A stretch of DNA of 64,000 nucleotides from Nemertoderma westbladi (taxonomy: Eukaryota > Animalia > Xenacoelomorpha), in the NCBI GenBank assembly GCA_032718475.1, contig JAUCBJ010002949.1:105102-169101 (forward strand). Direction: 5' to 3'. Below, piece by piece: positions 9,454 through 58,221 of the stretch; the first letter of the stretch is position 1; the number at the start of each line of letters is the position of its first letter. Both the position numbers and the translations under genes were made by a program. The notes below the pieces were generated by a model. The model was not told the DNA's origin. It ran no database searches and was given only the letters and a program-made list of their open reading frames with translations.

Positions 9454-10305
9454 CTAGTGAGTGGTCTTACTAACGGACGACACCAAATCCTCTGGGTTTA
9501 CCTCGGCTTTGGTGTCGTTCAAACCCGCCCATCCCACTAACTTAATCCCCTGTGCATCTACCAGATAAGGCCCTATGTATACATACAGCATTATCCCCAA
9601 TCGCCACAATTCAAACAGTTCTGTGGCAACCTCCCTTGCCCTGTCATTCGACAATTCGCCCTGCCCAAATCGGAATAAGTAGTGGAAATGTTTATTGCAC
9701 TCACCGAGTTTGCGGCTTAACTTGAGCTCATCTACCTTTCCTCCTTTCTTGGCGTCGTTGAGGATCTTTCTCGTGGCAATGTATCCACATTGTTGCGTGA
9801 TCGCTCATCCCAACGTCCTCCTCCTGAACTTCCTGACCTCCCCTCCTCATTCGACGTGGCACTGTCGGCCCTACCATTGTCGTTCTAGTGGGCCGTCGCC
9901 ACCTGTAGCCACTGGTTGGCTGGTGACCCCAGTGCTCTTCTCGCAACTCTCATCCCGTGTCGACTCGCATTCCTCGTCACCAAGTACCCGTCCATCTTCC
10001 TTCTCTCCAACCGAACCGTCGTTCTTTGGCGAATCTGGTGTGGTGGGTGGGTACCACCTCGTTGCCGCCTCCCGAATCGTTGCTTCCCTGTCGCTGGGAG
10101 TGTGCGGCAGACTTCCGCCCTTCTCCAAACATTGGGGAGTTCTTGGTTCGCTCATGTTGGCATCTTTCCTTTTCTAATACTCTCGTCTTTAACTGTGGAT
10201 GTTCATTACAACGAAGTCGGTTTAAACTGTGATGGGATCCGAGTTGGCGAGGGATTCCAACCGGTATTTGTGTCGTGGTTAATATGCATCACCGCGTCCG
10301 CTAAT
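9454..10305 (-). pseudogene. Decayed unidentified ORF interrupted by copy B
   Basis: ORF pieces 9871-10155 and 9454-9654 lie in one frame and are linked through a few stops; coding-like composition, no recognised domain. Confidence 0.4.
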
Positions 10306-10310
10306 GTGAC

Positions 10311-11497
10311 TGTAAAGGCTTTTGCGTAATTAGCCGGTTATTTTCCCCGTAAAGTACTCTGTAGTTGGTTTAACCGGCATAAAAGGCCGTGTCCTTACTG
10401 TACTGTTGTTTTAGAGGACATAAAAGCCATTTCTTCTGTATGTGTACTTTAGCGGACATAATTCGCAATTCTATGACGCAATACGCCAAATCCTCTGTAA
10501 ACAGTGTAGCTACCATGACGACGGCTAACAGCTGATGCTGTACACGTGGAGCTTGTTCTTTGTTCTCTGTTCCTTCTTTGTTCGGTCGACCAATCAGAGC
10601 GTTTTTTGCCTCTGTGTTGGAGATTGTATATAGAAACTCTTGGAGTTGAGTCAGTATGTGATTTTGTCCACAGCCTACAACACCGGCTTTGGAACCTCCG
10701 TGTTTCAGTCTTTAGCCCAACATTAGTAGGCTTAATTATAGAACGTATATCCGTTATCATATCAATCCATACATAACATATCATATCTCATTGATCACAT
10801 ATCTGCATTCATAACCATTCATACCTTAAACTTTGTACTGCTATTTACTGTCGGTTATTCATTATATTTGTTAATGGAATATTATATTTGGAATACTGAT
10901 AAATAATCAGACACCCCAATCTTCTTGATATACTAAAGGTTAGAGAGACCGGTTACATATAACGATTGCGACTTACATTAAATGGTTTGAAGTGAATCTA
11001 ATGCTATTTTATAGGCCCTACATGTATTGTCTGTTGTTCTCTTTATATGTGACTAAAATTAGTGAAGGTCGGCAGATCAGTGTGCAGCATTGTGCAGTAT
11101 TGTGTATGATTGTGACTGATAACAAAGCATCTCCTAAAGAATGCGCCATATACGTGAATCTATAGCCATCCCGTTGTGTCTAGTTTAAGTCATAACTCTG
11201 TTTACATATTTAGAGCGCCACATCCTAAAGGAACTGTTAATATTTCCCGAAAGTGAATAATATTTGTCAGAGATTATATATTACGATCAGTCGAATAATA
11301 CAGTAGGCCTACCCCGCAATACGGTGAGGCTTCCGAATCCAGTCTCCCGGGTATATCCAGCGGGTGAATGATCGCGCATAGACTGGCTTCGGCTAATGTA
11401 GTGTATCAAATACTTGTCATAGGCTAAAGACGATCTATCATCTAAAAGACATCCCAATTTGGCAGGTTAAACTGCTAAAGGTCTGAAAGCGCGAACA
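10311..11497 (+). repeat. 5' LTR of copy B
   Basis: TGTAAAGGC...GCGCGAACA; about 7 differences from 24345-25530 seen by eye. Confidence 0.97.
10590..10634 (+). promoter_or_regulatory. Probable LTR promoter: CCAAT box and TATA-like element
   Basis: CCAATCAGAGCG is kept in every LTR variant although the surrounding U3 diverges; TATATAGA follows ~35 bp downstream in B. Confidence 0.5.
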
Positions 11498-11536
11498 ATA
11501 ACGGATATTGCTTCTGTATTGCAGTAGGCAATAAAG
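11333..11536 (+). ncRNA. Conserved cis RNA structure at the U5/leader boundary, in place of a PBS
   Basis: Stems CCGAA/TTCGG and CCAGTCT/AGACTGG, and a loop TCGCGC complementary to terminal GCGCGA. All three change compensatorily in copy D. Confidence 0.7.
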
Positions 11537-11777
11537 CTGAAGTACCGGCAACCGGTACCCAGTAGGCCTGACTACCTAACCACCCGGACCGGTACCTACA
11601 GCAGTACAGGTACAGCAGTATTATTCGATTTTGATTATTATATACCAGTAGGTCTTAATAATTAATCGGGGACGCCTGGTTTTTATTGGGATTTTACTTA
11701 GGCCTATTTCTGTCAGTTTTATTTATTTGTAGGCTAATATTGAGCAGAAGGCATGTAAGCCTGCTCAGATTGTACAG

Positions 11778-12350
11778 ACAATTTGTAGGCTGGACTGTTG
11801 TCTGACTGTTGTTAAGTCTGAAGAGACTGTAGTGTGTGTAGAGCATATGTCCGAAAAAGTACTAGTTAGGAAAGTAGGGGCTGCCAGTGCTGTGAGGTGA
11901 ACCCCCTCGAAAGAATAAGTCGTACTACTCGGTTAGAACGCATACTAACTAACCATTTCGGAGTCTGCATATACTGTAGTGTATTTAGGCTTGATAGTAG
12001 TCTGTCAGCGTTTGGTCTGTACTTTGTTTGTGTAGTTTGTACGGGTAGCGTAATATTTCTTATTTAGATAATTTGTAGGCTGGATTTTGTCTGGCTGTTG
12101 TTAGGTCTTGAGAGATTTCGGTGTGTGTAGAGTGTATGTCCGATAAGGTGCCGGTTAGGAAAGTAGGGGCAGCCAGAGCTGTAAGGTAAATCCCCATCGA
12201 AAGAATAAGTCGTACTACTCGGTTAGAACGCATACTAACTAACCATTTCGGAGTCTGCATATACCATAGTTTGTTTGGGCTTGATAGTAGTCTGTCAGTA
12301 TTTGGTCTGCATTTTGTTTGAGTAGTCTGTACGCGTAGCGTAATATTTAT
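11778..12350 (+). repeat. ~290-bp tandem duplication in the leader
   Basis: Units start near 11778 and 12068 and share an identical ~60-bp core. Also duplicated in D (~51570-52140); single in A (~5600-5880). Confidence 0.85.
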
Positions 12351-13681
12351 TATTCAGAGTTTATGCTATTATTCGCAACATTCATATCCCCAAGTTTATT
12401 CCTACAGTAATTGTGCTTGTTATATATACCGTTATAGTTAAACTAACCCCGGTACTACATCAGGGCTGCTTGGCGTAGGTAAAGACTGGAGATTTTGTGC
12501 TTTGGTCACTCCGGCAGATACCGTGGTTCTTTTAGCTGTTCAAGTATTTTAACTACTAATTATTTGTTGTATAAGTACTTGTACCTAATTTAGGGTTTAG
12601 TGTACAGTACTTTCCGAAGGTGATTAGTGTGTAGGCAGTATATTTGTGTTGTAAAGTGGTTAATAGGCACGTTGGTTCTGGTAGACTGCGGTAATTAACT
12701 TCTAGGTAGGAACACTCCGTGATACATAACGTAGTACTTATAGCGATACGGCTATAAGTCGTCAGACGGTGGTATTTTCCTATCTGGACAACGCAGTATA
12801 TTTACTACTACTTATTATTTTCAAATACCGTAGTACCCTGTCCTTTGTAATAACCAGATATTCTAACCCTTTGTTAGGCTGGTTAGTAGACTTCTTGTAA
12901 AATTACCCTAAAAATTCGTACTTGTAAATTTTTTGTGTTTATTTAGAGATTGTAATCTCACCCCGAATTGTATGTAATTTGCAGTATTAAGTAACTTAGG
13001 TAAATTAGAATTATTTGTTTTAGAGTCTAACAAGTAGCACTTCACTGAGAGCGCACAGCTTCTGTTTAGTGACTTCCCCAGAAATAATAACATTTATTTC
13101 AAATATTGACAAAAACCCATTTTAACGGGTATATATATTATAAATCAACTCAAACTGATTTATAAAATAGTACGCCTGTCATACAACAATTAGGTCTAAA
13201 TATCAGTTGGACTACTGCTTAAATAACGGTAATAAAGTAAGTTAAAGTAACCAAGTAACCCTAAAATTCAGAAATTCAGTTATTCTAAAATAATTGACAT
13301 ACCGGTATTTACAATAGGCTTATTATATTTATTTCTATAAATTTTAGGCTGAAATTATACCGGTATTCTGTAATTAATTCTAGTTCATAATTATACTTAT
13401 ATATACTATAAGTGTAAGCTGCATACCGGTATTCACGATAGGCCTATTATATATTTATATATATTTGTGCTGAAATTACCTACCGGTATTCTGTGACAAA
13501 CCTAGTCTGTAATAATACTTATATATACTATAAGCATACCGGTATTCTAATATATTATATATATATCACGCTACACTGAGTAGCAGTATCGGTAATTAAT
13601 TACTAGGCTAACAGTGATACTGAATTACTAGACTTGCTTAAACTGTAATATAGCAGTAGGCATTCAACTGTGCAAACAAAT

Positions 13682-14767
13682 ATGTCTGACACAAAGCAAA
13701 ACCTGTCGGACAGTCTCCTAGATACAACCATCTGTGACCCAGACAGGAGTGTGGAACGAGTAGGACCGAAGTTCAACTCACCTCCTACTGTAAGAAAGAT
13801 CATCCCTCCCGTAGTAATATCAGACCCTAGGCTGGTCCAACATCGTAGGTCTATCATAGGCACTCGAGCTCAGGTCAAGCGGGACCAAGAAGCAGCAGAA
13901 CAGCAGCAACCCGTGAGCCAAGAACTTATTTATCAGCGGCCCGACAGCTCCAGTAATGCAGATACTGTAGAGCTGACACCCGAGCACGGCGCAAAGATGA
14001 CAGGTGCAGTTTATTCGGACCCCCTTCTCATCCTTCCTGCAGCCGTCCTCACTAGGTTATTGATTGCGGTGGAAGAACACCAGATCGATTGGGCGAGAAA
14101 TAAGCGATCCACTAAAGATAGTTATGCGGGATACACAAGGGAAGAACTGAAGTCTATTGTCGAGTCGCAATGGAACTTCCCCGGACCCGGACTCCCGTTT
14201 GATTTATCAGAAGCTGCCTGGGAAGACATACACAGGATGGGAGTAACCAAGGAAACCATCGATCCAGCTGTGTGGAAGAGGTCCGCAGCCGGATACGCAC
14301 AGGGATTCTTCAGCTCTATGGAGCGATTAAAAGAACAACTGTTTCAACAACCCCAAGGACCTCAAGAGCAGGGACAGCTGCTTTATCAAGTTAGAGAAAG
14401 AATTCTACGAATCAGGCTAATCTTATCGGCCTTTGAGGAGGCTTCTAAAAGAAGACAAGACACGTCGTTGCAAGTTGCCGTAAAGACTTGGTTTCAACGG
14501 GTGAGCCTCCAGGTTCAAGGAATGGCTCAGTGGAAAGCTCAGCTGGAGGAGCGCTCAACCCATGGAGAATCAACAGACGCTACTTTTTCCCAAGTGGAAA
14601 GTGAAGCGACGGCAGAGAAACCGCATAAGAGGGATGCCATTGACATCTATCTGTCAGACTATCAGCGCTTTTTAGGAGATGAAGAGTTGAGGAGAAGGTT
14701 AGATGGACTTAGCCCTAATAGTGAAGGAACCCAGCGATGTGGATATGAGAGCTGCGAACCAAGCTAG
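13682..14767 (+). CDS. Gag N-terminal part of copy B, frameshifted from the downstream ORF
   Basis: Homologous to the N-termini of 46109-50275 and 3099-4238. A net 17-nt deletion near 14732 relative to D breaks the frame. Confidence 0.85.
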   Translation: MSDTKQNLSDSLLDTTICDPDRSVERVGPKFNSPPTVRKIIPPVVISDPRLVQHRRSIIGTRAQVKRDQEAAEQQQPVSQELIYQRPDSSSNADTVELTPEHGAKMTGAVYSDPLLILPAAVLTRLLIAVEEHQIDWARNKRSTKDSYAGYTREELKSIVESQWNFPGPGLPFDLSEAAWEDIHRMGVTKETIDPAVWKRSAAGYAQGFFSSMERLKEQLFQQPQGPQEQGQLLYQVRERILRIRLILSAFEEASKRRQDTSLQVAVKTWFQRVSLQVQGMAQWKAQLEERSTHGESTDATFSQVESEATAEKPHKRDAIDIYLSDYQRFLGDEELRRRLDGLSPNSEGTQRCGYESCEPS

Positions 14768-17700
14768 ATTTGATGAACGCCTTCGCATCACTAGAGTCCA
14801 AGAAGAACAAGTGAAGAAAAAACGTGTAGAAGACAGAAAGGCAGCGGCAGTGGCAGCAGCAGTGGCAGCTGCAGAAGCAGAAAGAAAAGCGGCAGTAGCA
14901 GTGGCAGAGGCAGAGGCGGAAAGAAAAGCGGCAGCGGCAGAAGCGGAAAGAAAAGCGGCAGTAGCAGCGGCAGAGGCAGAGGCGGAAAGAAAAGCGGCAG
15001 CGGCAGATGCGGAAAGAAAAGCGGCAGTGGCAGCGGCCGAAGCGGAAAGAAAAGCGGCAGAGGCAGTGGCAGAAGCAGAACGGAGAGCGGCTGAAGAAAC
15101 CACCCAATTAGAATTGGAAAACATTCAGGAGAATCAAGACTGCATAAATAAACAGTTAACAGCTAGTAATATGCAGATGATGAATCGATCTACTCCCAAA
15201 AGACAGGGATATACATCATCTGAGGAAGGCGATACCACCGATACTGAAGGCAAAGGAAATAGATCTCGTCTAAGCAGACGTAGAAGAACATCCCACCATC
15301 AGAAATTGCCTGATTTGCCTCCAGCTGTTAGAAGGCAACTAAATAACACAAACTTAGGTAGTACAGAACCCACAGACCAAATAATTAAAATAGAAAGACT
15401 CCCTACTATAGTAGATGAGCCTGAAATAATTAGGCCTATTCCCGAAGCCACCCTTTCGGTGGTAGAGACACCTGTACTCCCTGAACCTACCTCTAAATTC
15501 CCTCTGCACAGCACTAAGCTACCTGTGCCCAGCAGAACAGCCCATGAGACAATCCATGTCCTGGACTCCGAGCGAAATATTAATGATTTGTCGCCCGTTG
15601 TCCCTCGTCCGCCCGCTACAACGTTGGCGGCTCCCGCTTCGGCGGTCGAGTGGGTGGATGAGAGACGACGGGGGATGGATCTCCTGCTCGGGCAGATGCA
15701 GGAGACCGTTCAGCAATTCAAGGGCACAGTAAGGGAAAGTAGGTTAGAGTTGCAAGAAGTGCAGCAAAGTATCGCGTTAGAACGCGATAAATTAGTAAAT
15801 ACACAAAAGGGTATACCACCACCCCCGGTAACAATGTGTCAACCTGTTAGGTCTGAAGTATTTCATGCGCAAGGTGTGGAGCCTACACGCATATATACTG
15901 CTAGCGAAGTAGAAACTCCTATAGTGAACCCTATTAAGGGTAATTATAGACCTGTTCATAATGATATTCCCTATAGACCTGATCATAATCCGAGAAATTT
16001 ATATACCGATAACTCGATATTAAATAACACGATGGCCCAAGAAAGTTTTACGCGTCAAATGGCTAGAACCGAAGCCCGGCAAGCGGTAAAGGTGGGAGAG
16101 ATCGTCAAGTTCAATGGAGATGAGATGAAATGGTTACCTTTTAATGAATATTACAAAGATAACATACAGAACTCTGTGCTATCTAATGGAGAGAAACTTA
16201 GATTCCTCATCGAGTGCTTGGAAGGATCTCCCAAGTTAATGGCGTTAAAGTTTATTGGACATCCAGATGGATTAAGACAAGTTTGGGATACACTAAACAT
16301 CAGGTATGGTAATAGGAATAACATAGCTAAATATTTGTATGCAAAATTAGTAGCGCCCCGAAAGTTCATTAGCAGCGGGATAATAGAGTTTTCCGATGAG
16401 ATTCAGGAGATCTGTAGACAATTAGATTGGTTAGGTAAGTCTCATGAATATCAGAGTTCTATGGTTATTGGAGCCGTGGCATCTACTTTACCGAAGGGTG
16501 GAGTAGGTACACGCTGGGATAAGAAAGTGTTGTACATGATGGAACAACAACGACGAGACCCTACCATGGCTGATCTCATGTCATTCTTAGATGGAGAAGT
16601 GAAATTACAGCTCCTAAAACAGTCCAGAGAGAAGACACCGGAAAACAAGGTAAGTGAGAAACCCGTTTCTAGGAGAAAGGTAACACCAGTGTGTTATACA
16701 GACGACGGCGAAAGCCAGACTTCTCAAGGAGAGGATAGCGGGAAAGACACTGAAAGATCTTATTATGTCAATAAAACGCCTAAAGAACAGGTAAGTAAAT
16801 TCAAGTCTCGAACCAATGACAGGAGAGAACAGGTAAGAAAAACTCCTCCTACGTCTCCTAAGAGAATTCAGGTGAGAAAGCCCGAAGAAAGAACGAGTGT
16901 GCACAATGTTATTCAAAATAAGGTAAGTAACATCAAACCGAAATTTGCGCTATGTGACGGGACCCACCGTTTGAATATGTGTGATGAATTCCTGAAGAAA
17001 TCATTAGCGGAGAGACGGGAAGTCATGTGGGATAAGCGGTTGTGTTATAATTGCCTCAGACAAGGACACCAACGGCGAACCTGTTACTCCGACACAAGGT
17101 GTGCAAAGTGCGGTGCGAAACATCATATCTTGATGCACACTGAATTCGAGCGAAACAGCCAGAGTCAGGTAAGTGAGTCCGAACTACATGTCCAATTCAG
17201 TGATGTGAACGACACTGACCAATATTCTGAGATGGAAGGATTCTATACGGACGAATTCTCCGACGAAAACGAATCCTGTTACCTGACAAATACCGCAGTG
17301 TATCGAGCACTTACGTATGAAAAGGACACCGACAGCGAGCTCCCCCTAACTACTTCTGACAGACAACCATCTTGGAAAGCACCAACTTCCAATGTAGGAA
17401 TCCGAGAATTTCCTGTAGTACAGTTAAGGGTCCACGGACCTACAAGGAGTTATATAGTGAACGCCCTCCTTGACTCCGGTAGTACAGGAACATTCATCGA
17501 CAAAGAACTAGCCGAAGACATCTTTGCTGGACAACCCAAGTTCCGAACTAAGCTAAACATGTCAGGAATTATGCAGGTTTGGAAATCTACCGTAATAGCG
17601 GATTATTATGTAGGCGCGTTGTCCACCCCCCAGGATGAACTAGGAGAACACAGCATAAGGTCAGTAAAAATGGTAGCGATAAAGAACTTCGCTACCAGCC

Positions 17701-18374
17701 AAGTGGAACCTTATAACTGGGATGAGGACGATTTCACCCAGCAGCTTGAAATACCTAGATTCAACACCGATTACCCTGGAGTCCAAATACTCATCGGTCA
17801 AAATGCGCATGAAGCGCTCGAGACATTGGAGAAACGGTCTGCTCAACCGCAACCACTACAAGCTTATGTGGGAAGAACTAGAGTGGGTTGGTACTTTACT
17901 GGCCCTTCCCGTAGAACTCTCATGGAAAGATTACCGAAAGATCAGGTATATCAAGTAAGAGAATGGGAAGATGAGAGCAGTGAGTTAGACGATCCAACTG
18001 AGGGAAGACCATACTCCTCAGATAATGACGACATCAACTCCAATGTAGATCAATGGAGACATTGCCCCGAGACGATTAATCTAGCCGACATCGCCTCCAG
18101 AGGAGCAACTCCTCAAGAACTGACAGATACTCCAGACTGGTTAGGTGAACCCGACTTCCTAAGTAAAGAAGATGAATGGCCTCCCCACCTTAACCCGGCT
18201 GAGATTAGACAGGCCAAGGGAGCGGAGAAAGTAACACAACAACTCAAGCGCCCAGCTGGTCGTTTATATTTACTAGAAAGAGACCGAAAACTGTCCGGAA
18301 ACTATGGAAGGCAAGATACTCTTCCTACGACCACTTCCCTAATCCGACAATTATCTAGGGACTCCATAACGTAA
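14703..18374 (+). CDS. BEL/Pao Gag-protease with remnants of RNase H and integrase
   Basis: Capsid-like KFNGDEMKWLPF...EKLRFL, knuckles CYNCLRQGHQRRTC and CAKCGAKHHILMH, protease ALLDSGS, RNase H end QWRHCPETINLADIASRG, integrase tail KRPAGRLYLLE. No YxDD RT and no DDE core. Confidence 0.92.
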   Translation: MDLALIVKEPSDVDMRAANQARFDERLRITRVQEEQVKKKRVEDRKAAAVAAAVAAAEAERKAAVAVAEAEAERKAAAAEAERKAAVAAAEAEAERKAAAADAERKAAVAAAEAERKAAEAVAEAERRAAEETTQLELENIQENQDCINKQLTASNMQMMNRSTPKRQGYTSSEEGDTTDTEGKGNRSRLSRRRRTSHHQKLPDLPPAVRRQLNNTNLGSTEPTDQIIKIERLPTIVDEPEIIRPIPEATLSVVETPVLPEPTSKFPLHSTKLPVPSRTAHETIHVLDSERNINDLSPVVPRPPATTLAAPASAVEWVDERRRGMDLLLGQMQETVQQFKGTVRESRLELQEVQQSIALERDKLVNTQKGIPPPPVTMCQPVRSEVFHAQGVEPTRIYTASEVETPIVNPIKGNYRPVHNDIPYRPDHNPRNLYTDNSILNNTMAQESFTRQMARTEARQAVKVGEIVKFNGDEMKWLPFNEYYKDNIQNSVLSNGEKLRFLIECLEGSPKLMALKFIGHPDGLRQVWDTLNIRYGNRNNIAKYLYAKLVAPRKFISSGIIEFSDEIQEICRQLDWLGKSHEYQSSMVIGAVASTLPKGGVGTRWDKKVLYMMEQQRRDPTMADLMSFLDGEVKLQLLKQSREKTPENKVSEKPVSRRKVTPVCYTDDGESQTSQGEDSGKDTERSYYVNKTPKEQVSKFKSRTNDRREQVRKTPPTSPKRIQVRKPEERTSVHNVIQNKVSNIKPKFALCDGTHRLNMCDEFLKKSLAERREVMWDKRLCYNCLRQGHQRRTCYSDTRCAKCGAKHHILMHTEFERNSQSQVSESELHVQFSDVNDTDQYSEMEGFYTDEFSDENESCYLTNTAVYRALTYEKDTDSELPLTTSDRQPSWKAPTSNVGIREFPVVQLRVHGPTRSYIVNALLDSGSTGTFIDKELAEDIFAGQPKFRTKLNMSGIMQVWKSTVIADYYVGALSTPQDELGEHSIRSVKMVAIKNFATSQVEPYNWDEDDFTQQLEIPRFNTDYPGVQILIGQNAHEALETLEKRSAQPQPLQAYVGRTRVGWYFTGPSRRTLMERLPKDQVYQVREWEDESSELDDPTEGRPYSSDNDDINSNVDQWRHCPETINLADIASRGATPQELTDTPDWLGEPDFLSKEDEWPPHLNPAEIRQAKGAEKVTQQLKRPAGRLYLLERDRKLSGNYGRQDTLPTTTSLIRQLSRDSIT

Positions 18375-18928
18375 CAACATATGGAGTGGGTGTGTGACTA
18401 TATTATTTTATATTTATATTTATTTTTATTATTTTATATTATGTATGTATTATTATGTAATTTTATTATAATCGTTTTCTTTAATTTTATTTAGTCAAAT
18501 GTTATTTAGCGATTATTTAGTAGATTAGTGCAATATATTAGTGTTTATTACTTAATTACTTATATATTATATTTAGTGCGAAGGCGAGAAATAATTCTTT
18601 TTCTCTTTCCTTACTGTCCGTATCATATTATAAATACGCGACTACAGTAAGATGAAATATCCGTACTTATTAAAGTACAATAAAGCTCCTACTATATTTA
18701 AGTATTATTGGTAAGCAGAGTATTAGGAATGCAAAATTCAGATCCTTGTGTCTCGGCTAAACCAAGCTCTGGGTAGACCTTGGAAACGACTTGCCTCTTC
18801 CTCACTGACATTGCTTCGTGCGATATTGCTCTCATACCGTATATTAAATAATACATATAGTAGCGTGATGTCCTTTTAACAGTAGCGTATAACGCAAAAT
18901 AAATCTGTTAAACCCTTTGACCATCTGT

Positions 18929-19191
18929 AATTCTAGTCGATTAAGATATCGCGGCACCCACCGATATACTTGAAAGACAAATTCTAGAATCAGTGGTTAA
19001 CGTCCCCAGACAAGTTCTGGAATAAACTGGTGCCCATCCTAAATATTAATTACTAATATTTACAAAATCTGTCAAATTCTAGATCCTTTAAAATTCTAGT
19101 CGATTAAGATATCGTAGCACTTACCGATACTCTTAAAAAGACAAAATTACTAGAATCGAGGATCCCAGTCCCCAGACACGTTCTGGAATAA
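18929..19191 (+). repeat. Duplicated hairpin-forming unit in the ORF1-ORF2 spacer
   Basis: TTCTAGTCGATTAAGATATCG...CGATA..CTT(G/A)A..GAC...CTAGAA occurs twice ~165 bp apart, each followed by CCAGA...TCTGG. Conserved in D at ~45300-45560. Confidence 0.75.
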
Positions 19192-19824
19192 AATTACGTC
19201 TATTTAACATTAAATAATAAAATTTATGGGAATAAATTTAAATTCATATATTTCAATGAATTTAATAAATTGTCATTTTATACAATTTATAACATTCCCA
19301 AAATTCCATTAATTAATAGATCATGGGAGCGGAGATTCACTCTATTAAGTGTATTTGTGTGCGAGAATCTCCAATATATAGTCAATAGCCGATAAAATTC
19401 ATAAAATCATATATAGAGAGGATATTGACAATTAAAGCATTACTATTAAATAGCATCCCAGATCTGTATGCATGAGAATTACCCTAATTCTACCGCTAGC
19501 TTTCCATAATGTCACCATGGCAACAACCACGCTAGAATTAGAAGTGAGTTAAAAGAACAATAGAAGGCTTGCTCCATTGAATAGCATAGGGAATAAATAG
19601 CATACTGCTAGTATCCAAGGATACATAATAAATAAAGTGACATTCTGGAAGGTACTGACTAACGGACAAATGGCCCGAATGTGTACAGTTTATGGCAGTT
19701 GTGTTGAATTTGTGCGTTCATAGGTGAATGTTACTGCTAAAGTGTGTTTACAGTAGCTAGTCGCAATTGTGAAAGTAGCCCTAACTCTCCAGAAAGAACC
19801 TGAAGTACATCTAAGCCTTTGGGA

Positions 19825-19971
19825 CGGACAGTGGAGTGACTTGTGCCGGTTATCGTTGTCGTTGTGTAGCTACATCGTTGGCGAAAGCACAGCGACGACG
19901 GTACATCGGCGCTGAGGATCTTGCACTGTCCGGGGGCAAAAGAGGGGTAGGCAGCGACGCCCGCTAGCCTA
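19825..19971 (+). ncRNA. Conserved structured RNA element upstream of ORF2 (IRES candidate)
   Basis: Nested stems with compensatory and wobble-preserving changes among copies B, C and D; ends ~40 nt before the ORF2 ATG. Confidence 0.75.
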
Positions 19972-20012
19972 ATATATAAACTCATTATAATATTGATAAA
20001 CTCATAGCAGAT

Positions 20013-23000
20013 ATGACTGAGTTGATAGAAGATGATCTTGGTATCAGGGAGCGATATACTCTACCTTTACAAGCGTTTGTCGATATCTTGATACGCGGCG
20101 ACGCTGGTCCAACCACTACGGAGGATGATGGTCGTTATATCGAACCACCAATGTCACCGGAGCAACTTACGCGTGAATTGGATTATAGAAAGTTCACCGC
20201 TCGCTATACGCATCGTAATGGTACGTATATGGACTTCTTAACTACTGGCCATCCTATCGATTTACACGATACGGACGATGTAGACACTGAAAGGGAAATG
20301 GTTTTATTTAAATATCATACCCAGCGGAGTCGGAACGATAAACCGAGAATAGAACACGAGAACTCTATTCGAAACAAACTCGAAAGGGAAGACGTTGAAG
20401 AGCCGGATAAACGCCGCGACTTTAACGATTATCTGGAATTCCTGAGAGAGACATATCTCAATATTGCCAGCCAACAAAATCTCGAAACTAGATATCCTCA
20501 AGGTATACATCATGACCCTATGATAGAACTCAAACGACTCTATTTCACTATAATGTATCTTACCGCCGATCGACCGCTACCTGTCGTCCCAGATAGCTTC
20601 GAACAGATGGAGGAATATTGTAAAACTGGAGAACGATCACCCGCGTTTCCCCTGCAGGACGTGTGTCTTTGGTATTACTGCGACGAGTGCCCTAGACCCA
20701 ATCAGCAAACGGAAAGACATAAACATCCGCGGAGACGTTGCGCTAAACACAGTTTTACACAATATACTTATGGGAGTTTCGAGCGAAACCTGTTCAACAT
20801 ATCCCCTACGGTTGCTCGGCTCGAACGATCCTTGAACAAACCAATGATCAGAGTTCCGGAATACTCGGTCAGACCTCCTCATTCCTCAGTTAGACCTCAG
20901 ACTCTTGATCCTAATAGTATCACGGATCCTCCCGAACTGTATTCGCTGTTCAAAGATCTAGTGTTACCCGAACAGTTGATTGGTGGCACTCCGGTAGTAG
21001 GCTCGCTAGATATTCGCCAACCCTACCGAGCTGGATTGGGACGCAGTCATCTAATATCGCCGTTTAACCCACACAACCGTCCCGGCTTCACCTCGATACA
21101 ACCCGTTACGGAAGTCGAAGAGAGCGTCGTACGAAACGCGTTAGACGCTATTCGGCAGAAAATCGGAAAGGGAACTTACGATTGTTTGGAGAAACGTAAA
21201 TTGCAACAACAAGTCCAAGCGGTGAAGGAATTAGCTTTACCCCAGTTCGATAGAGAAATACAAAATCTCGAGGAGGACATCGAACGTGGACGAACCTACT
21301 CTTTACAAGAGTTCCTAGATGAGCGTCTACAACAACAAGCGGAGGAAAATCAGCTCGAGGAGAGACATATAGAACTAGATGAGAGAGAAGAAGCAGCTTT
21401 AGCTCAACCCGAAGCTCAAATCCTTATGACGGATCTCTACTCTAAAACCATCCTTCATCCCTCGATGGTTCCCCATTTCGGAGACAAACTCTTTGCGACG
21501 ATACAACCCCAACCGGTTGATATCAACCTAAGATCTAGAGATCTTATCGCTGACGCTCCCATGTTGCAACGTCCACCCATCGAAGCCGCTCATGTAGATG
21601 GTATACTCGTTGAACCTCCGGACAATAGAGCGGATCTTGTCCGTCGCATGGTACACGATGTAAACATACGCGCTAGACCTTTACCGGACTCGTTTTATGG
21701 GATCAAAGATCACCCTTATTACGTTAACCTAACACAATATTACATGGTAAAACCGGAAGATCCTACACATAGTCTGAGGTTTCTGCCACTCATAAATCCT
21801 CTCGATCTTGTCGAACTCGAACAACTGCATAAACATCTGGATCAGTTGGTTAAAATAAACTCATTTCGAAAACCATACAATGTTTCCAGAATAGAGAAAG
21901 AAACAATACCTCCGTATAATCTTGATGGATTCATCAAAACTCGTTTAGTACACTGGAATCTTGACGTGTTATTCGTGGAGGAAAGAATACAACGATATGG
22001 AGATGTGGAAACATATACCACACAATATTTAAAGTATAGAGACCTACCTAATGCTAGCAAATGCGCTACCTTGTGGCATCCTGTGGGAATGACCCTCGAA
22101 AACGCCACTAAAGAGTGGAATGAGACTCTTAACGTTATCGAGATGTATGGAGTTGTCACCTATGACAACGAAGGTAGCGTTCCGGTTGGAGAACTGGGAA
22201 CTACGCGGATGATACACATACGAGGACTCGCTGGTTCTACCCACGTATTTACTCGAGCGTGTTCCGATGTGATTGATTATTCTTTTGAAACTCTTACTGA
22301 GACACAAAAGAGACTCCGACATGGACAATTCGAGCTCGCGCAGCGTTACGTCGCCGACACCGAGCGCAAACCGGCCATGGGTATCGATGGATCGATGTTA
22401 CCCCAGCCCGTGCTCGAGATGTTGTTTAACGAAAGAATCCTTAAAATCGGCTCAGCTGTTTATGGAGATCTAAAAAACGACTTTCGGAATATGGAAAACA
22501 TTCCATATCCTTTCGTGGATACTCAGCTGATTGCTCCCTGGGCAGAAGGCCGAGGTTTCTTCCGCACTATGTATGCCAATACACCCAGCGGCATTACTAA
22601 AGTACAACGAACCTCCATCGGACATCTTGCCTTTCAAGAATACGGATGGAATTTCAAGGTTGGAAATCCTATAAATTACCAACAAGTATATGGAGATCAT
22701 TATTCTCATTTATACTTTGATGGACCATTGACCGCACCTGGCGCCGTGTATAGCTTTATGAGTGTTCCACTTCGTCCCTCCTTAGCTATATACACGATCT
22801 TTGAAAATGCAGCACTTGCCGGTTGGCTAGCCGATGTGTGCAGTCGTACCATACGCGCCCATCCCTTAATACTTGGAACCAAACTCGCCAAGTTAGATGA
22901 ACACAATAAATTCCTCCGCTTCGAATGTTTCAGGCGCTTTCTGACTCCGTTCCGTAACGTTGATAGTCAGTTCAAGGACTGCGCTCTGACCAAACTCAGC

Positions 23001-24266
23001 CTAAGAGACTCAGCTGCGGAGAAGCTAAATAGTGCGGGATTTGCTCTCTTTCAGGACGTTTGTATACAGAACTTACATTCATCTGTTATACAAAGACCCC
23101 GAATACCCACGGGTTATTCTGTCGTGGAAGTTCAGACAGTGGGTCCGCTTGCAGAGACAGCTGCACCTACCTCAGCTATGCAATTGGAAGACGAACCAAT
23201 CTGCTTAGAGTCTGAAGCGATCCAGCCTACAGCGCCCCGGAGCAGCGATAACGATTACGTCTTGGAGTGGTATCAAGGTCCACAATGTCTCACCGCATAC
23301 GATTATCGACACGCCAACTATGTTTCTCGAAAACGTTGTCGATTATGCGCATTGAGAGACCATTTCACCCCTATGGACTCAGACGTACCCTGCTCCTATT
23401 TCCACGAACAACCGATGATGGAGATCTATTGTGCGTATTGCAGACTTAATAACTCGCATATTTTTGCAGTCTGCCCCCAATTTATGACCCAATGTCACCA
23501 CTGTCAACTTAAAGGACATGCCAGTTATAATTGCCCCTTTAACCGCGATTTAGAAAGCGTAGATGAGATGATTACCTTGCGCTACATACGAGCTTGGGAA
23601 GCGAACGCGGATTTACATTGTGAGGCCCGCCATCGCTACTACCCTGGACGGTCTTACGAGGGAGTTTACGCGTTCCATCCTTATTTATTCGCGTCTGTGG
23701 AACAAAAAACACGCACACCGAGTTACGAACTAATGAAGCGTGTTGGTGAGTGTATTTCCACCAAATTTGTTCGAAAATATCTTAGGAACGTCAATCCTAA
23801 CGATATTACTTCATATCATTTGATCAATTTCATCCGTCAAGACCCTGAGTATGGCGATTTATTTATCAACTCGCACCCTGAGTTACAGGAAGTATCTCGA
23901 CGGCCCTACGAATATCGAGCCCGAGAACGCGAGCTGGAAAGAACCATTAAACCAAGGAAGTTTCTCACCACTCACGGTCCGCCTACTGCCATTGTCCAGA
24001 TGACCCGTCAAGGACCCGTAGGAGCTGCTGTCCTAAGACGCGCCCTAAAAGCCGTTAGACCTCGCTCCACTGAAGTTGATATCAATCAACCAGGTACCTC
24101 GACCGGCGGATACACCGATCGTAATCCTAAACCTTCTGATGCAATTGTATTGCACCCTTCACCCAGGAGTTACAGCCCTCCTAGTAAAGTGGCTCGCCCC
24201 AAAGAGAAAAGGACTCTTGCTAGCCTCAAAAAACTGCGTAAACGCCATCCGCATAAGAAAGACTAA
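20013..24266 (+). CDS. ORF2, 1417 aa: DEDDy-type 3'-5' exonuclease domain, zinc knuckles, basic C-terminus
   Basis: ExoI VVTYDNEG (D718/E720), LPQPVLEMLFNERILKIGSAVYGDL (ExoII D819), FVDTQLIA, SIGHLAFQEYG, ExoIII PLRPSLAIYTIFE (Y927/E931); knuckles CAYCRLNNSHIFAVC and CHHCQLKGHASYNC; no signal peptide or TM segment. Confidence 0.85.
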   Translation: MTELIEDDLGIRERYTLPLQAFVDILIRGDAGPTTTEDDGRYIEPPMSPEQLTRELDYRKFTARYTHRNGTYMDFLTTGHPIDLHDTDDVDTEREMVLFKYHTQRSRNDKPRIEHENSIRNKLEREDVEEPDKRRDFNDYLEFLRETYLNIASQQNLETRYPQGIHHDPMIELKRLYFTIMYLTADRPLPVVPDSFEQMEEYCKTGERSPAFPLQDVCLWYYCDECPRPNQQTERHKHPRRRCAKHSFTQYTYGSFERNLFNISPTVARLERSLNKPMIRVPEYSVRPPHSSVRPQTLDPNSITDPPELYSLFKDLVLPEQLIGGTPVVGSLDIRQPYRAGLGRSHLISPFNPHNRPGFTSIQPVTEVEESVVRNALDAIRQKIGKGTYDCLEKRKLQQQVQAVKELALPQFDREIQNLEEDIERGRTYSLQEFLDERLQQQAEENQLEERHIELDEREEAALAQPEAQILMTDLYSKTILHPSMVPHFGDKLFATIQPQPVDINLRSRDLIADAPMLQRPPIEAAHVDGILVEPPDNRADLVRRMVHDVNIRARPLPDSFYGIKDHPYYVNLTQYYMVKPEDPTHSLRFLPLINPLDLVELEQLHKHLDQLVKINSFRKPYNVSRIEKETIPPYNLDGFIKTRLVHWNLDVLFVEERIQRYGDVETYTTQYLKYRDLPNASKCATLWHPVGMTLENATKEWNETLNVIEMYGVVTYDNEGSVPVGELGTTRMIHIRGLAGSTHVFTRACSDVIDYSFETLTETQKRLRHGQFELAQRYVADTERKPAMGIDGSMLPQPVLEMLFNERILKIGSAVYGDLKNDFRNMENIPYPFVDTQLIAPWAEGRGFFRTMYANTPSGITKVQRTSIGHLAFQEYGWNFKVGNPINYQQVYGDHYSHLYFDGPLTAPGAVYSFMSVPLRPSLAIYTIFENAALAGWLADVCSRTIRAHPLILGTKLAKLDEHNKFLRFECFRRFLTPFRNVDSQFKDCALTKLSLRDSAAEKLNSAGFALFQDVCIQNLHSSVIQRPRIPTGYSVVEVQTVGPLAETAAPTSAMQLEDEPICLESEAIQPTAPRSSDNDYVLEWYQGPQCLTAYDYRHANYVSRKRCRLCALRDHFTPMDSDVPCSYFHEQPMMEIYCAYCRLNNSHIFAVCPQFMTQCHHCQLKGHASYNCPFNRDLESVDEMITLRYIRAWEANADLHCEARHRYYPGRSYEGVYAFHPYLFASVEQKTRTPSYELMKRVGECISTKFVRKYLRNVNPNDITSYHLINFIRQDPEYGDLFINSHPELQEVSRRPYEYRARERELERTIKPRKFLTTHGPPTAIVQMTRQGPVGAAVLRRALKAVRPRSTEVDINQPGTSTGGYTDRNPKPSDAIVLHPSPRSYSPPSKVARPKEKRTLASLKKLRKRHPHKKD

Positions 24267-24336
24267 CTGTTTAGAGTATTTTTATATTTTAGAAACTGTG
24301 ATTTGTTATATTTTATAGACTTAAATCCCATTTTCT

Positions 24337-24344
24337 GGGAGCGG
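24337..24344 (+). other. Polypurine tract-like sequence GGGAGCGG
   Basis: Directly abuts the 3' LTR in B, C (39722-39729) and D (43125-43132). Confidence 0.75.
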
Positions 24345-25530
24345 TGTAAAGGCTTTTGCGTAATTAGCCGGTTATTTTCCCCGTAAAGTACTCTGTAGTT
24401 GGTTTAACCGGCATAAAAGGCCGTGTCCTTACTGTACTGTTGTTTTAGAGGACATAAAAGCCATTTCTTCTGTATGTGTACTTTAGCGGACATAATTCGC
24501 AATTCTATGACGCAATACGCCAAATCCTCTGAAACAGTGTAGCTACCATGACGACGGCTAACAGCTGATGCTGTACACGTGGAGCTTGTTCTTTGTTCTC
24601 TGTTCCTTCTTTGTTCGGTCGACCAATCAGAGCGTTTTTTGCCTCTGTGTTGGAGATTGTATATAGAAACTCTTGGAGTTGAGTCAGTATGTGATTTTGT
24701 CCACAGCCTACAACACCGGCTTTGGAACCTCCGTGTTTCAGTCTTTAGCCCAACATTAGTAGGCTTAATTATAGAACGTATATCCGTTATCATATCAATC
24801 CATACATAACATATCATATCTCATTGATCACATATCTGCATTCATAACCATTCATACCTTAAACTTTGTACTGCTATTTACTGTCGGTTATTCATTATAT
24901 TTGTTAATGGAATATTATATTTGGAATACTGATAAATAATCAGACACCCCAATCTTCTTGATATACTAAAGGTTAGAGAGACCGGTTACATATAACGATT
25001 GCGACTTACATTAAGTGGTTTGAAGTGAATCTAATGCTATTTTATAGGCCCTACATGTATTGTCTGTTGTTCTCTTTATATGTGACTAAAATTAGTGAAG
25101 GTCGGCAGATCAGTGTGCAGCATTGTGCAGTATTGTGTATGATTGTGACTGATAACAAAGCATCTCCTAAAGAATGCGCCATATACGTGAATCTATGGCC
25201 ATCCCGTTGTGTCTAGTTTAAGTCATAACTCTGTTTACATATTTAGAGCGCCATGTCCTAAAGGAACTGTTAATATTTCCCGAAAGTGAATAATATTTGT
25301 CAGAGATTATATATTACGATCAGTCGAATAATACATTAGGCCTACCCCGCAATACGGTTAGGCTTCCGAATCCAGTCTCCCGGGTATATCCAGCGGGTGA
25401 ATGATCGCGCATAGACTGGCTTCGGCTAATGTAGTGTATCAAATACTTGTCATAGGCTAAAGACGATCTATCATCTAAAAGACATCCCAATTTGGCAGGT
25501 TAAACTGCTAAAGGTCTGAAAGCGCGAACA
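24345..25530 (+). repeat. 3' LTR of copy B
   Basis: Direct repeat of 10311-11497, followed by TSD GTGAC. Confidence 0.97.
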
Positions 25531-26551
25531 GTGACTGTCGCTATAAGGCTTGGGCCTGAAAGGCCGATATAATAAAGATCTGCATTTAAAGCTTGTGGAT
25601 ATTGATAATGTCAGATATATGAGTATCGGTAATACAGCACAATCAGTATTGCACAATGACAGCAGTAACGTCGACGGTTTTAACCATTTAACTTCTACTT
25701 GAATACTAGCCAACTGAATCATAATTAATACTGAATAAAAGTTATATGGAGATTGCATCGAAGATTACACATATTGCCTACTGTATCGACCTACCAATAG
25801 ATGCATGCTAATTTATGGTGTACCGCCCCACTATTGGTTGGTTTACTTTCCTTGGCCACACCCTATCTTTCCTGGCCCTGTGCTGTCTTCCCCCTGAGAT
25901 GTATTGGTATCTCTCTCCAGCTGGCAGTGTATATTGCCTTATTCCCTCTGGTATGCAATATTGGGTTGGACAATATTGCATATCTAATCGTAATTCGTAT
26001 ATCACGATTTCCCCATTTTCTCAATGGGTGGTGCACTGGATTGGATCCGCTAACAAGATGTCCCATATTCACTTTACCACACCTAGAGGCAGACTGGTTA
26101 ACTGTTGTCGATATACACTTTTCGCTGTAATTACTGTAATTGATGTAATATTGATCTAATCTGGTTTGAGAATATTATTGAAAATTGTTTTTGACATTTT
26201 TTTGTTCCGTCAATACTGATAGTTCATTTGTATGATATATGTATTGCGTATGAATATCTAACCCTGGCGTGTGTATGTAGGCCTACATTACTATCCTACA
26301 TGATTGATTTAACATTATTGCGGTTACTTTATTGAGGTTATTTAATTTGCAATTAAACGATGTGTTCACTCTCTTTAATTATCATAAAGTTCTACAAATA
26401 TATATTTCAGTACAAATACAACAATTTTTTACCGGTAACTTTAAAGAGTTATGAACAGACTTGAACTCTCTGTACCTTAGTTTATATTTGTTGTGTATTG
26501 TGTTAATGAATAACGTTTCTTATTGGATGAATACTAAGGCTTTTGGTTATA

Positions 26552-27021: not shown

Positions 27022-29815
27022 TTTGGTTATATTGGTTTGTTGTGGAGGGAAATTAGTTTAGTTTAGTCAAAGTATTTCAGTTCTTAGTTAATTCCGTTTA
27101 CCGATAGCAATGGCTTGAGAAAGGAACCAAGGTTTTTGAAGTATTGCAATAATTTTGTTGTTGCGTCATCCTTATCCTGTTAATATTAATAATAATATAA
27201 ATTCATTAGGAAGTGCTTCTCTGAATAGGAACACTACTACTGTAACAACATTACATTATACCCCATGCGGTGTCTCTCTAAGAAATCTCTAAGAGATCTC
27301 TCTTAAGAAATAAGAAAATCAATTTGGTAATTTACAACGTAATAATAACGTTACTGCAAAGGCAGAAAATTTCAGATCAATAGACAGACAATGATGATCT
27401 ACTGTGTATACCTACTACCAACACACACCAGAATTACAACCCTCATATATTATGTATCTTCTATACAATTTATCATATAATATGTAGGCTACCATAGCAT
27501 AGGCGCATGCACTCTGTGTTTCTTTTCTTCGCCAGCCAAGTTTGAATTTTGCTTAGTTTGTCTATAGTTCGTTTACTAGTTTTCTATTTTTATTATTATT
27601 TTATTTATTATTTTTTATTATATTATTTTATATTAATTTATATATTTTTATTATTATATATATTTATATAGCTCATTAAAGTTGTCGAGTTTAAAATTTG
27701 TAGGCAAAAGTCAATAAAACCCAAAATTTGATTTTTTAGAGACTTTCAGACAGCATCATCACTGGCTTTCAATATTTTTTACCTATTTCATCTAGAGCAG
27801 ATTTTTATCAAGATTCCAAATATGAAAACCGTTTAGCCAAATCCATACACTTTTTTCCATACACTTTTCTGTTTTAAAATCTGTCTTACTTTTCGATGTA
27901 TGGCTGTCTGTCCGTTTTACTGCCAATCAATATGGCTGACTGTCCGTCAATATGTCTCCAAAACAAAGGCAAACATAAAATCTGTCTTAAAAAAATTAAT
28001 ATATGGGTTTTCTTGGTCCGTGACTTCATTTCTGATATCAGTATTCAAATTTGGCATCGTCTTTTCTGTCTGTATGCCTGTCAGTCTGTCCGTCAAAATA
28101 TATCCGTCAGCCAGACTGCCAAACAGACAATTTGGGGCCATCAAATCTGCGATAACTAATACGTAACTCCCTATAACAAAATTTTTAGCTAGATGGTGTG
28201 CCCTTTTCTTATATTTAACGGACAGATTGTCAGATAGTCAGAAAGACCGACAGACAGACTAACTAGATTTTATTAAAAATGAAATCTGACCTCAGAAATT
28301 AAACTGGAAATGCTAAATAAACTGGAAACATCAATTTTAGTGCCATTATGGTGCCCTGATCGAAAAGAACATGTAGGAAAATTTTCAAACTGTTCAATTT
28401 TCCTTTGGTTTGGTAATTCTGATTGTAAAGTCCAGTAGTATACCGCCTACCGAATCCTTGTAACGAAATACCTTACTGTAGAATTCAGCAGTGTATACGG
28501 GTTCGTACAGTACCTGACAAGAAATCCCAGTCCAGGGTGTCTAAATAAACAGATACCAAGTACACAAGCTACTACTGGCGAGGAACGGGGCCTGATGTCT
28601 CTTCTAATACTTGGGCGAATAAATTGCACGGGCTAACTAGACAAACAGGATGCCCGGCCTCTAACCGGTGAGGCAGATGTACAGTTTACAGATACAGACC
28701 AAACTCACGGGAAAACAATTCCCGCGTAGCGAATCCTAACTATTGCTAAAGGACCTAAATACTGTAAACTTGCCGCGGTGTGATTTATATGGGTATAATA
28801 CGAGCTAGCGGGTCAACGACACTAGCGTAAGAAACAATACTGCTGACAGGAAAAGGCAGTCAAAAGGTTGCCTGATCAAACAAATACCAAATACCTCTAC
28901 AAATAATAATAACCTATCTGTAAACTTAGTAAATCTCAAGACGCGTGTGTGTGTGTTACGATAAAACAATTTTGGTGTACCGCTGTTAGACTAGGTTTTG
29001 GTGATTTTAACAAAATAACAATACCGGGCGCTAGCTACTTGAATAAGCTAGTCGCACGCTGTAGGCGCAATACTTACAAACTGACGTCAAAAGGGCTCTC
29101 TCCTCCTATATTCACAACTCAGTCGGGCAATTACGGTGTTAGTAACTACACCCGGATCAGCACTAATACCAAATTCTGATTGTGAGATAAGGAAATAGGG
29201 TGTTAATTTACTACCGTACGTCTAGCTGATCTGGTATGTAATTTGATTCTAAAATTTTGTTACCGTGGTGGTCTGCAGTAAATACCTATCAGTACGTGGC
29301 AAGGGCGCGGTAGATTGTTAGTAAACCTCCCTCAGCCAAAATGCGTGTCGGTAGCAGAAAGCTGCCTCTTGCCTGAGCAAATACTTTGGACTCAGACAGG
29401 TCAGTCAAACTGCGAGGCCTTCAGAGCTAACCAGTACTGTACCACTTGTACGGTAAATCACCAAATTATAGAGCGTGTTATTCGCATCTAAGTGTACTTG
29501 CACATACTGACAAACAGCATCATCTCGCACCTGTGACCCGGGTTTTTTCCTGTCTGAATCTGAGGTATTTGGTCCAAAATTTTACGGCGTCCCAGGATGG
29601 CGTGCTTCACCCTGATCTAAGGATCTTACGGTGGGCAAAGGCGTCAAATAAAGTCTTACCTCCTCTGACGTGGGCGCGATCAGGCAAAAGGGCATGCTTC
29701 CAAATGGAAGTGGGCGAAGATAGTGCAGGTTCCGTTATGCGTCATGGACATCCCTTCCCCTTGCGTTTGATTTGGTATGTGCAGCCAGTTGGTGGCCAGC
29801 CAGTAATGCATCCAG

Positions 29816-30243
29816 GTGCAGATAATAGATTTACGTTCTTATAATCAAAGCCATCTAATGTTGGCCAAAGTCTGAAACTTCTACAGAAGCACAGAATAAT
29901 TTCTAAGCCGATGTTCTGAGGCTCAGAAAGGTAAACAAAAACCGTAATGCATTGCGCGGTTTTCCGTAGGCCTCTGTACAAGATAAAATGAAAATCGCTC
30001 TGATTGGCCGAGCGAGCTGAACAAAGAGATGTGCCACGTTTACAGTAAATCAGCTGACAGATTTCGTCATCTGAGTTCCAGTCTTTTAGAGTATTAGGCG
30101 CATTGCGGCAGAAAATGGCTTGTTATGTCCGCTAAAACACCTACATGGCATATTGCGGAAAAAATGGCTTGTTATGTCCTCTAAAACATCTACACGGTAT
30201 ATTGCGGAGAAAATGACTTGTTATATCCGCAAAAGCTTTTACA
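29816..30243 (-). repeat. Partial LTR (U3 segment) nearly identical to the start of LTR A
   Basis: Matches 6888-7321 including the TGTAAAAGC terminus; homology stops at 29816. Confidence 0.88.
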
Positions 30244-36660: not shown

Positions 36661-36806
36661 TTATTTTTTTGAAAACGGTTTTCACGACTAGGAAGACAAT
36701 AGATTTTTTTAGGAAAAGTCATAAAATTTCAGATACCCAACTGCGTGCGTTTCAGAATTATAACAAAAAAACCACGGGAGGGTCATATTGACCCCCCCCC
36801 CCCCCG
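36661..36806 (-). mobile_element. Terminal fragment of the MITE family seen at 56816
   Basis: Reverse complement of ~56828-56965. Confidence 0.75.
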
Positions 36807-43124: not shown

Positions 43125-43202
43125 CCGCTCCCAGAAAATGGGATTTGAGTCTATGAAATATACAAAATCACAGTTTCGAATATACGTAAATACTCTAAAC
43201 GG

Positions 43203-44481: not shown

Positions 44482-44523
44482 ATTTGCTATCTGAGTTTGT
44501 TAATATCGAAATGAGTTTATGTT

Positions 44524-58220: not shown

Positions 58221-58221
58221 C

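Follow-up and report, generated by a model that had tools for sequence, protein, structure and literature searches.

A selected plus-strand RNA structure ahead of ORF2, with a twin inside ORF1, in an unusual BEL/Pao-like retrotransposon of Nemertoderma westbladi

The 147-nucleotide stretch at positions 19825-19971 of the window, as we call the whole 64,000 nucleotides of Nemertoderma westbladi DNA analysed here, forms a real plus-strand RNA structure that is under selection: its pairing is preserved in the copies of the family that carries it. The structure has no family match and lies before ORF2 of an unusual BEL/Pao derivative; its function is putative. We also describe a new feature, a twin of its main hairpin (H1) inside ORF1, and the two are the strongest folds of the element. 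We propose, at a probability of roughly 40%, that H1 and its twin form a putative binding handle on the full-length RNA for packaging, dimerisation, export or transport.

Results

The host element and its copies

H1 is carried by copy B, a 15.2-kb LTR element on the plus strand (10311-25530) with the following main parts.

10311-11497, plus strand: 5' LTR with TG..CA ends, preceded by the target-site duplication GTGAC
13682-18374, plus strand: ORF1, a BEL/Pao Gag (DUF1759) with a protease and what is left of the RNase H end
20013-24266, plus strand: ORF2, 1,417 amino acids, with three zinc knuckles (amino acids 1109, 1140 and 1161)
24345-25530, plus strand: 3' LTR, 99.4% identical to the 5' LTR and followed by GTGAC

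Three relatives of B (copies A, C and D) lie on the minus strand of the window; A runs to about 7.3 kb and is clipped by the window start, and D (41853-53861) is nested in ORF2 of C. The TG..CA LTRs, the 5-bp target duplication, the DUF1759 Gag (42.9 bits against a Pfam cut-off of 25.4; the protease match is weak) and the resemblance of ORF1 to the BEL/Pao polyproteins P0001 and P0002, at the Gag knuckles and the RNase H end, are all features of BEL/Pao elements. Neither reverse transcriptase nor integrase gave a Pfam match in ORF1 of B or D or in ORF2, and these frames thus lack the set of reverse transcriptase, RNase H and integrase domains found in an autonomous BEL/Pao element. Judged by its sequence, the element is a non-autonomous BEL/Pao derivative. 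The identity of the two LTRs, 99.4% in B and 99.6% in D, indicates that the family inserted recently, and the summed contig depths of the DNA runs, at most two million, suggest that it is very abundant, although they do not give a copy number. ORF1 of B is broken by a frameshift near 14.7 kb; a programmed frameshift joining the two pieces was considered and dropped, since copy D keeps a single frame.

Several further observations concern the surroundings. The 2.2-kb leader (11498-13681) shows no obvious tRNA primer site directly after the 5' LTR, and a tRNA scan gave no tRNA. The spacer contains a tandem duplication (18901-19062 and 19065-19226, 75% identical), each unit of which forms a plus-strand hairpin with a z-score of about -3 to -4. 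Elsewhere in the window, 29814-38464 and 55889-61549 hold further repeats with ORFs of 170-270 codons and no Pfam match, 56900-57979 and 60518-61549 form an inverted pair with internal repeats, and the window closes with a tandem array (63246-64000) that repeats every ~95 nt.

ORF2 begins 1,639 nt past the ORF1 stop, in agreement with the 1.6 kb of the original prediction, and occupies the position of env. Its dN/dS against C and D is 0.10-0.29 in all eight aligned pieces (dS 0.17-0.79), which indicates a real gene under purifying selection. No Pfam domain scored above cut-off and no transmembrane stretch was found in ORF2. Amino acids ~710-945 are probably a DEDD/EXD-type 3'-5' exonuclease domain: the language-model neighbours of ORF2 are PF01612 3'-5' exonuclease clusters (0.93; 171 of 256 features), and candidate ExoI-III residues placed by eye are D718, E720, D819, Y927 and E931. 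Two structure predictions of the domain gave a pLDDT of 30-31. A homologue search of 1.84 billion representative proteins returned one protein, P0003, the single relative of ORF2, which aligns at amino acids 796-942 and at the knuckles and itself has only a weak PF01612 match (E 0.2). Among 7,991 candidates of lengths near the query there was no homologue, and P0003 as query, over lengths near its own, retrieved only itself. The PDB sequence search with ORF2 matched at the zinc knuckles only, pattern scans of metagenome and viral contigs gave no match, and none of the 81 stretches matched in a protein scan was confirmed. The likely exonuclease part (22140-22850) is present only in B, as C and D carry internal deletions.

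Anatomy of the structure before ORF2

The structured stretch and its flanks consist of the following parts, all on the plus strand in copy B; the last two lines give the counterparts in copies D and C.

19799-19823, plus strand: H0, a weak 7-bp hairpin 5' of H1, with most of the UGGGA stretch paired
19825-19932, plus strand: H1, the main hairpin, with two stems totalling 40 predicted pairs (-60.8 kcal/mol, z -7.6)
19837-19839 (UGA) and 19917-19919 (GAU), plus strand: internal loop with U.U and tandem G.A, the earlier kink-turn candidate
19854-19860 (CGUUGUC) and 19894-19900 (GACGACG), plus strand: 7-bp helix, identical in the twin (15596 and 15664)
19869-19883, plus strand: apical motif of H1, common to the twin: a 4-bp GCUA/UGGC stem whose loop ends in YGU
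19933-19947, plus strand: purine-rich linker, its G run constant in the three copies and the remainder highly variable
19948-19971, plus strand: H2, a hairpin of 9 bp with one bulge (-11.6 kcal/mol)
19972-20012, plus strand: AU-rich spacer, predicted unstructured, with a conserved AG at 20006-20007
44524-44666, minus strand: H1 to H2 in copy D
54061-54207, minus strand: H1 to H2 in copy C

The outer stem CGGACAGTG (19825-33) / CACTGTCCG (19924-32), the long inner stem and the 3' hairpin at 19948-71 are all present as originally described, and the distance to ORF2, given there as ~40 nt, is 41 nt to the ATG at 20013. H1 contains a 3x3 internal loop with tandem G.A and a small apical stem-loop, and its single bulges (19904, 19913 and 19923) are all on the 3' strand. 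The structured stretch probably extends further 5' than had been thought, to the small hairpin H0, which has a predicted energy of -3.8 in B, is better paired in D (-6.5) and is deleted in C. The AU-rich spacer measures 41, 42 and 41 nt in the three copies and is 74-83% AU; its TATA-like stretch occurs in copy B only.

The likeness of the internal loop to a kink-turn stood only in part. The tandem G.A / A.G is there, UGA (19837-39) facing GAU (19917-19), and the three-nucleotide bulge that lies directly before the G.A pairs in a standard kink-turn (PMC8191799) is absent. The loop is predicted to be a symmetric 3x3 loop with its flanking bases paired, and this pairing is backed by U19922C, which turns G-U into G-C at 46-66% of depth, and by U19842C in copy C. 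The pair next to the G.A tandem is Watson-Crick, and such a pair has been reported to prevent kink-turn folding in ions alone (PMC4382518). On the predicted fold, the loop is thus not a standard kink-turn, which leaves room for a protein-induced or complex one. Hammerhead, HDV-like and SECIS readings were also dropped: judged by their motifs, no GAAA follows CUGAGGA, ORF1 ends in UAA, the stem above the G.A loop has 28 bp, and Rfam gave no match.

The pairing of the stretch is selected on the plus strand

The stretch folds at -74.4 kcal/mol in B, -68.1 in D and -72.4 in C, with z-scores against shuffled sequences of -6.31, -5.33 and -5.13, and none of 200 shuffles was equally stable. The minus strand of the B stretch reaches a z-score of -1.95, with 7 of 200 shuffles as stable. 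A preliminary z-scan, with 12 shuffles per window, was used as a lead only. B and D differ by 7.9% in the ORF1-ORF2 spacer, 7.8% in the H1-H2 stretch, 10% in the leader and 17% in the LTR part; the H1-H2 stretch therefore stands out by its fold, not by its identity. The entire spacer (18375-20012) looks constrained: between B and D it has changed far less than have synonymous positions (dS about 0.35-0.7), which suggests either additional cis elements or that lineages have recombined.

Compensatory mutations had been claimed from the copies within the window. The variants themselves are as reported: in the outer stem D changes a G-C to G-U and C a U-A to U-G, copy C has two double changes, both C-G to U-A, and 96.9% of 161 cells in the three copies are paired. 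The evidence from these three copies alone is thin, because 55 of 500 shuffles reach the two doubles and both are CpG-type transitions. The claim is carried instead by other genomic copies, which add a double change not of the CpG type, A19852G with T19902C. These variants come from contigs of four of the seven listed public runs, compared over 19815-19990 for changes of at least 4%; 40 of 41 variants were available, of which 27 (19846-19937) were checked against the predicted pairs and 13, in the unpaired linker, were excluded from this check. Among the variants listed, 11 transitions fall in the 32 Watson-Crick pairs of the H1 stems: eight lead to G-U pairs, and in each of the three that break a pair the partner base changes too. 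Unaccompanied breaks are thus 0 of 11 over 64 positions (P about 0.003, a value that uses the B structure and treats sites that are not independent events). A further five listed changes in H1 turn G-U into Watson-Crick pairs, and one listed transversion, at 19891, breaks its pair. The CpG-type changes all keep pairing (5 of 5), and the seven possible pair-breaking ones are absent among the variants listed. In run X4, record 17 (depth 558.3) carries A19852G together with T19902C, as phased by depth arithmetic, and records 18 and 20 (185.3 together) carry both CpG doubles, so that these two belong to one C-like lineage. In the G.A loop, G19917A reaches 15% (X1) and 24% (X3) of depth. The H2 end is under-reported in the run variants, where the A>C change at 19966 present in contigs is missing; therefore, invariance of H2 is not claimed from the DNA runs.

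A neutral inverted repeat or DNA cruciform, in which CpG decay mimics compensation, would account for the CpG-type doubles of copy C, for the lack of significance in the three copies alone and for an H1-H2 stretch no better conserved than the spacer around it (divergence 0.078 against 0.079). It is already disfavoured, and we regard it as extremely improbable, because changes to and from G-U work only on the plus strand, which favours RNA over a cruciform, and because of the accompanied breaks, the pairing kept by every CpG-type change and the non-CpG double. A small-RNA precursor, H1 being cut by Drosha and Dicer to yield a miRNA-like product from its 5' arm, would fit the stem of about 40 bp and the lack of any listed variant of at least 4% at 19821-19845. 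Both arms vary from 19846 onward, however, by up to 37% of depth, which is unlike a mature miRNA; cleavage would destroy the genomic RNA, and no Rfam miRNA matched, so that we consider this origin very improbable. The strand-specific fold and the pair-keeping variation support the part of the original prediction that proposed a selected cis-acting RNA structure.

A twin hairpin inside ORF1

15585-15682, plus strand: twin hairpin within the ORF1 coding region, apical motif at 15615-15629 (z -7.0)
48801-48898, minus strand: twin hairpin in copy D (-61.9 kcal/mol, z -7.5)

The three strongest local folds in the 15.2-kb element B are the twin (-82.1), H1 (-67.2) and a third at -47.6. The twin folds on the plus strand of the element (z -7.0 in B and -7.5 in D, against -2.9 and -3.0 on the minus strand). 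Both hairpins end in GCUA-loop-UGGCG and have the helix CGUUGUC/GACGACG in common, with a U-G at the same place. The pattern CTAC-N(1-4)-GTTGGCG, chosen post hoc, has six matches in the window where 0.06 are expected, three per site, and all sit at H1 or the twin, in whichever copies have these sites. Of 60 local shuffles, 2 gave an equally good 15-nt match to H1, and the twin makes up 0.8% of the target; the joint chance of the match at the twin is about 3 in 10,000. In five of the six window loops, the last four bases are the self-complementary AYGU; the H1 loop of B is the poorest self-pairer among the intact hairpins (-5.3 against -8.0 to -11.9).

The overall local score of H1 with the twin is 37.5-39, and other windows score up to 47.5 (2,492 windows, mean 20.4, sd 4.8); as their likeness is not the best in the element, a common origin is not established. 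No dip in synonymous changes was seen at the twin, and between B and D, the two copies folded, five changes keep the pairs of B's fold and four break them. The twin has no G.A loop, H0, linker or spacer, and these features of the H1 region need a separate explanation. Copy A has lost the 5' arm of its twin: near 2481-2491 it lacks the B stretch 15410-15615, a gap that ends exactly at the apical motif of the twin and might be the trace of template jumping at this structure. Within 15675-15706, at the base of the twin, two in-frame AUGs (15675 and 15696) are retained by copies B, D and A alike; in B and D the twin is followed by a 7-bp hairpin, CUCCUGC/GCAGGAG.

Discussion

How ORF2 may be expressed

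The leader of ORF1 is poor in AUGs, with 5 in 2,184 nt in B (35 expected) and 4 in D (36 expected), which fits scanning to ORF1. The first 1,356 nt of the spacer hold 19 (27 expected), so that scanning from the ORF1 stop to ORF2 is unlikely and ORF2 needs splicing, a start of its own or internal entry. In the last 282 nt before ORF2, B has no AUG (4.3 expected), C none and D one, in the apical loop. On unspliced RNA, the form to which this applies, ORF2 is thus a selected frame beyond scanning reach, as an IRES presupposes.

The original prediction held that an IRES or another cis-regulatory role was likely, and it is the selected cis-acting structure, more than the IRES, that is borne out. 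In the IRES reading, H0-H1-H2 would recruit ribosomes in the full-length RNA, with the AU-rich spacer as a landing pad for the ORF2 AUG; by extension, the twin might do likewise for the in-frame AUG at its foot (15675 or 15696). The selected ORF2 (dN/dS 0.10-0.29), the contrast between the AUG-poor ORF1 leader and the AUG-rich first part of the spacer, the predicted unfolded AU-rich 41-42 nt before the AUG in all three copies, and the IRESs reported in gypsy (PMC4276936) and in a Steamer-like element (PMC10974842) all agree with it. Yet the Rfam search that had been suggested gave no match to the structure, with two chance matches (E above 5) elsewhere in 18300-20200 and none at gathering score in 10300-25600. 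The structure is a single long hairpin in which a pseudoknot or multi-domain fold is not evident, and the UGGG stretch is predicted to be paired in B (unpaired probability about 0.05). From the foot of the stem to the next AUG, H1 leaves 81 nt, whereas in the twin the AUG lies inside the stem or 15 nt away. Third ORFs of LTR elements are, in the accounts of PMC5408684 and PMC4276936, usually spliced. Above all, the upper half of H1 recurs in the ORF1 coding region, which a pure ORF2 IRES does not explain. We consider an IRES unlikely, albeit a serious candidate.

A conserved splice acceptor had been thought to be missing; AG is in fact retained in all three copies at 19722, 19752 and 20006, among other sites, each time with a weak pyrimidine content. 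Strong splice-donor-like sites (AG|GTAAGT and similar) are clustered within ORF1 at 16435-17175. No joint appeared in the contigs of run X5, tentatively taken as RNA, a result that does not bear on splicing. If ORF2 were expressed from a spliced leader with its acceptor at 19722 (TAG|G) or 19752 (TTTACAG), ribosomes could bypass H1 by a shunt or be throttled by it, and those past H1 would land in the AU-rich spacer. The AG in all three copies at both sites, the absence of AUGs from the final 282 nt of B and of C, and a 10-codon uORF (19728-60) present in all three copies and overlapping a candidate acceptor are consistent with this, as is the order of a large stem followed by a UA-rich stretch. 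In pararetroviruses, a short uORF ends a few nucleotides before a stable stem and a UA-rich landing site follows it (PMC5902531). The uORF of B ends 64 nt before H1, however, against 7-8 nt in the plant viral shunts described there, both acceptors are weak, with 7-8 pyrimidines in 14 positions, the apical loop of D contains an AUG, and the AUG-free count is small and post hoc; we judge this route improbable. Less probable still is that ORF2 is spliced to the AG at 20006-07, with the structure in the intron limiting splicing or marking unspliced RNA, and with H2 half-hiding the branch-like CCUAA (19968-72). The first AG after CCTAA in B and C is indeed 20006, which lies 35 nt downstream of that motif and 5 nt upstream of the AUG; in D it comes 2 nt earlier. 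The acceptor is putative, however, with no pyrimidine tract (7 of 14) and an A-rich spacer.

Two further candidates were rejected. Reinitiation through a TURBS does not fit: U, not a purine, precedes UGGGA, the linker to the AUG is 75 nt against the 12-23 nt given in PMC11921876, and the last uORFs end 252 (B), 124 (D) and 215 (C) nt before the AUG. The UGGGA at the foot of H1 is also likely to be paired by H0, according to the predicted fold. An internal TATA-initiator promoter at 19973-20004 was dropped, as the TATA-like stretch of B differs in D and C.

H1 and the twin as a putative binding handle

A signal that stands before ORF2 and again inside a translated frame is most simply read as a site bound by protein or RNA on the full-length transcript, and a handle on the genomic RNA would fit this repetition better than a pure IRES. 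A protein may recognise the bulged long helix and the GCUA/UGGC apical stem-loop, the simplest binder being the zinc-knuckle Gag of the element itself, and loops of the AYGU type might pair with each other. As the family lacks matches to reverse transcriptase and integrase yet has inserted recently, its RNA must presumably be packaged efficiently. The twin lies in the ORF1 frame, which is under purifying selection, so that ribosomes would pass through it. H1 and H2 lie in front of ORF2, and, bound or folded, would block scanning and so gate ORF2 initiation as a second effect; with its predicted -61 kcal/mol, H1 would affect the translation of ORF2 whenever it is present in the message. The binding-handle, IRES, splicing and other readings are therefore compatible, not exclusive. 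Known packaging signals lie mostly near the 5' end, which counts against the handle.

Little has been written on cis-acting RNA signals in BEL/Pao elements, and our search of BEL elements, extra ORFs, IRESs, export and dimerisation, in literature that includes few subscription journals, found no published one of this kind. In this very abundant family, a structure backed by strand-specific evolutionary evidence occurs together with a twin site and an extra ORF that is itself under selection. Two questions can now be approached with short RNAs: the packaging of RNA from a non-autonomous element, and the expression of an ORF that occupies the env position.

Comparison with known systems

Structured export elements are known in retroelements (PMC4588558). 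In Ty1, kissing hairpins with Gag-assisted dimerisation have been proposed (PMC5454406), a kissing-loop model that was not confirmed in the work described in PMC6844567. The MTE of MusD, the CTE, the RRE and the Ty1 hairpins are, like H1, structured plus-strand cis elements of genomic RNA with long stems and pairable loops. H1 has no sequence or Rfam match to them and, unlike them, lies between a gag-pol remnant and an extra ORF and has a second copy in a coding region. The IRESs of gypsy and the Steamer-like element (PMC4276936, PMC10974842) likewise consist of structured RNA that precedes an ORF of an LTR element, but, as described, lie in the 5' leaders of their own transcripts, and gypsy env is spliced. 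The TURBS of caliciviruses and influenza B resemble H1 in that it adjoins UGGGA and could form a short P1-like pairing, but no upstream ORF ends at the ORF2 start codon.

The coding sequence of the I-factor contains bulged localisation hairpins (PMC13186709). Together with the K10 TLS and the gurken GLS, the I-factor ILS belongs to the hairpins bound by Egalitarian, which share with H1 the single bulges on the 3' strand; a 3'-5' exonuclease homology domain is part of Egalitarian (PMC13186709) and apparently of ORF2 as well. This is a resemblance only, since H1 is much longer and GC-rich, and a LOTUS-like domain, compared with Egalitarian, was not found by Pfam in ORF2. It is improbable, in our estimate, that the exonuclease-like zinc-knuckle ORF2 protein binds both hairpins and controls its own translation and the export or transport of its RNA. 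Such a pair of ORF2 and hairpin would resemble Rev-RRE, or Egalitarian and its localisation hairpins, but in an invertebrate-type LTR retrotransposon. An extra ORF of the ORF2 type has already been reported in rotifer elements: the bdelloid LTR retrotransposons Juno and Vesta carry a DEDDy-type ORF3 (PMC5408684) which, like ORF2, is an extra ORF downstream of pol and likely a DEDD exonuclease. Compared by description, ORF2 differs in its non-autonomous BEL/Pao-like carrier and in its 1,417 amino acids with three zinc knuckles.
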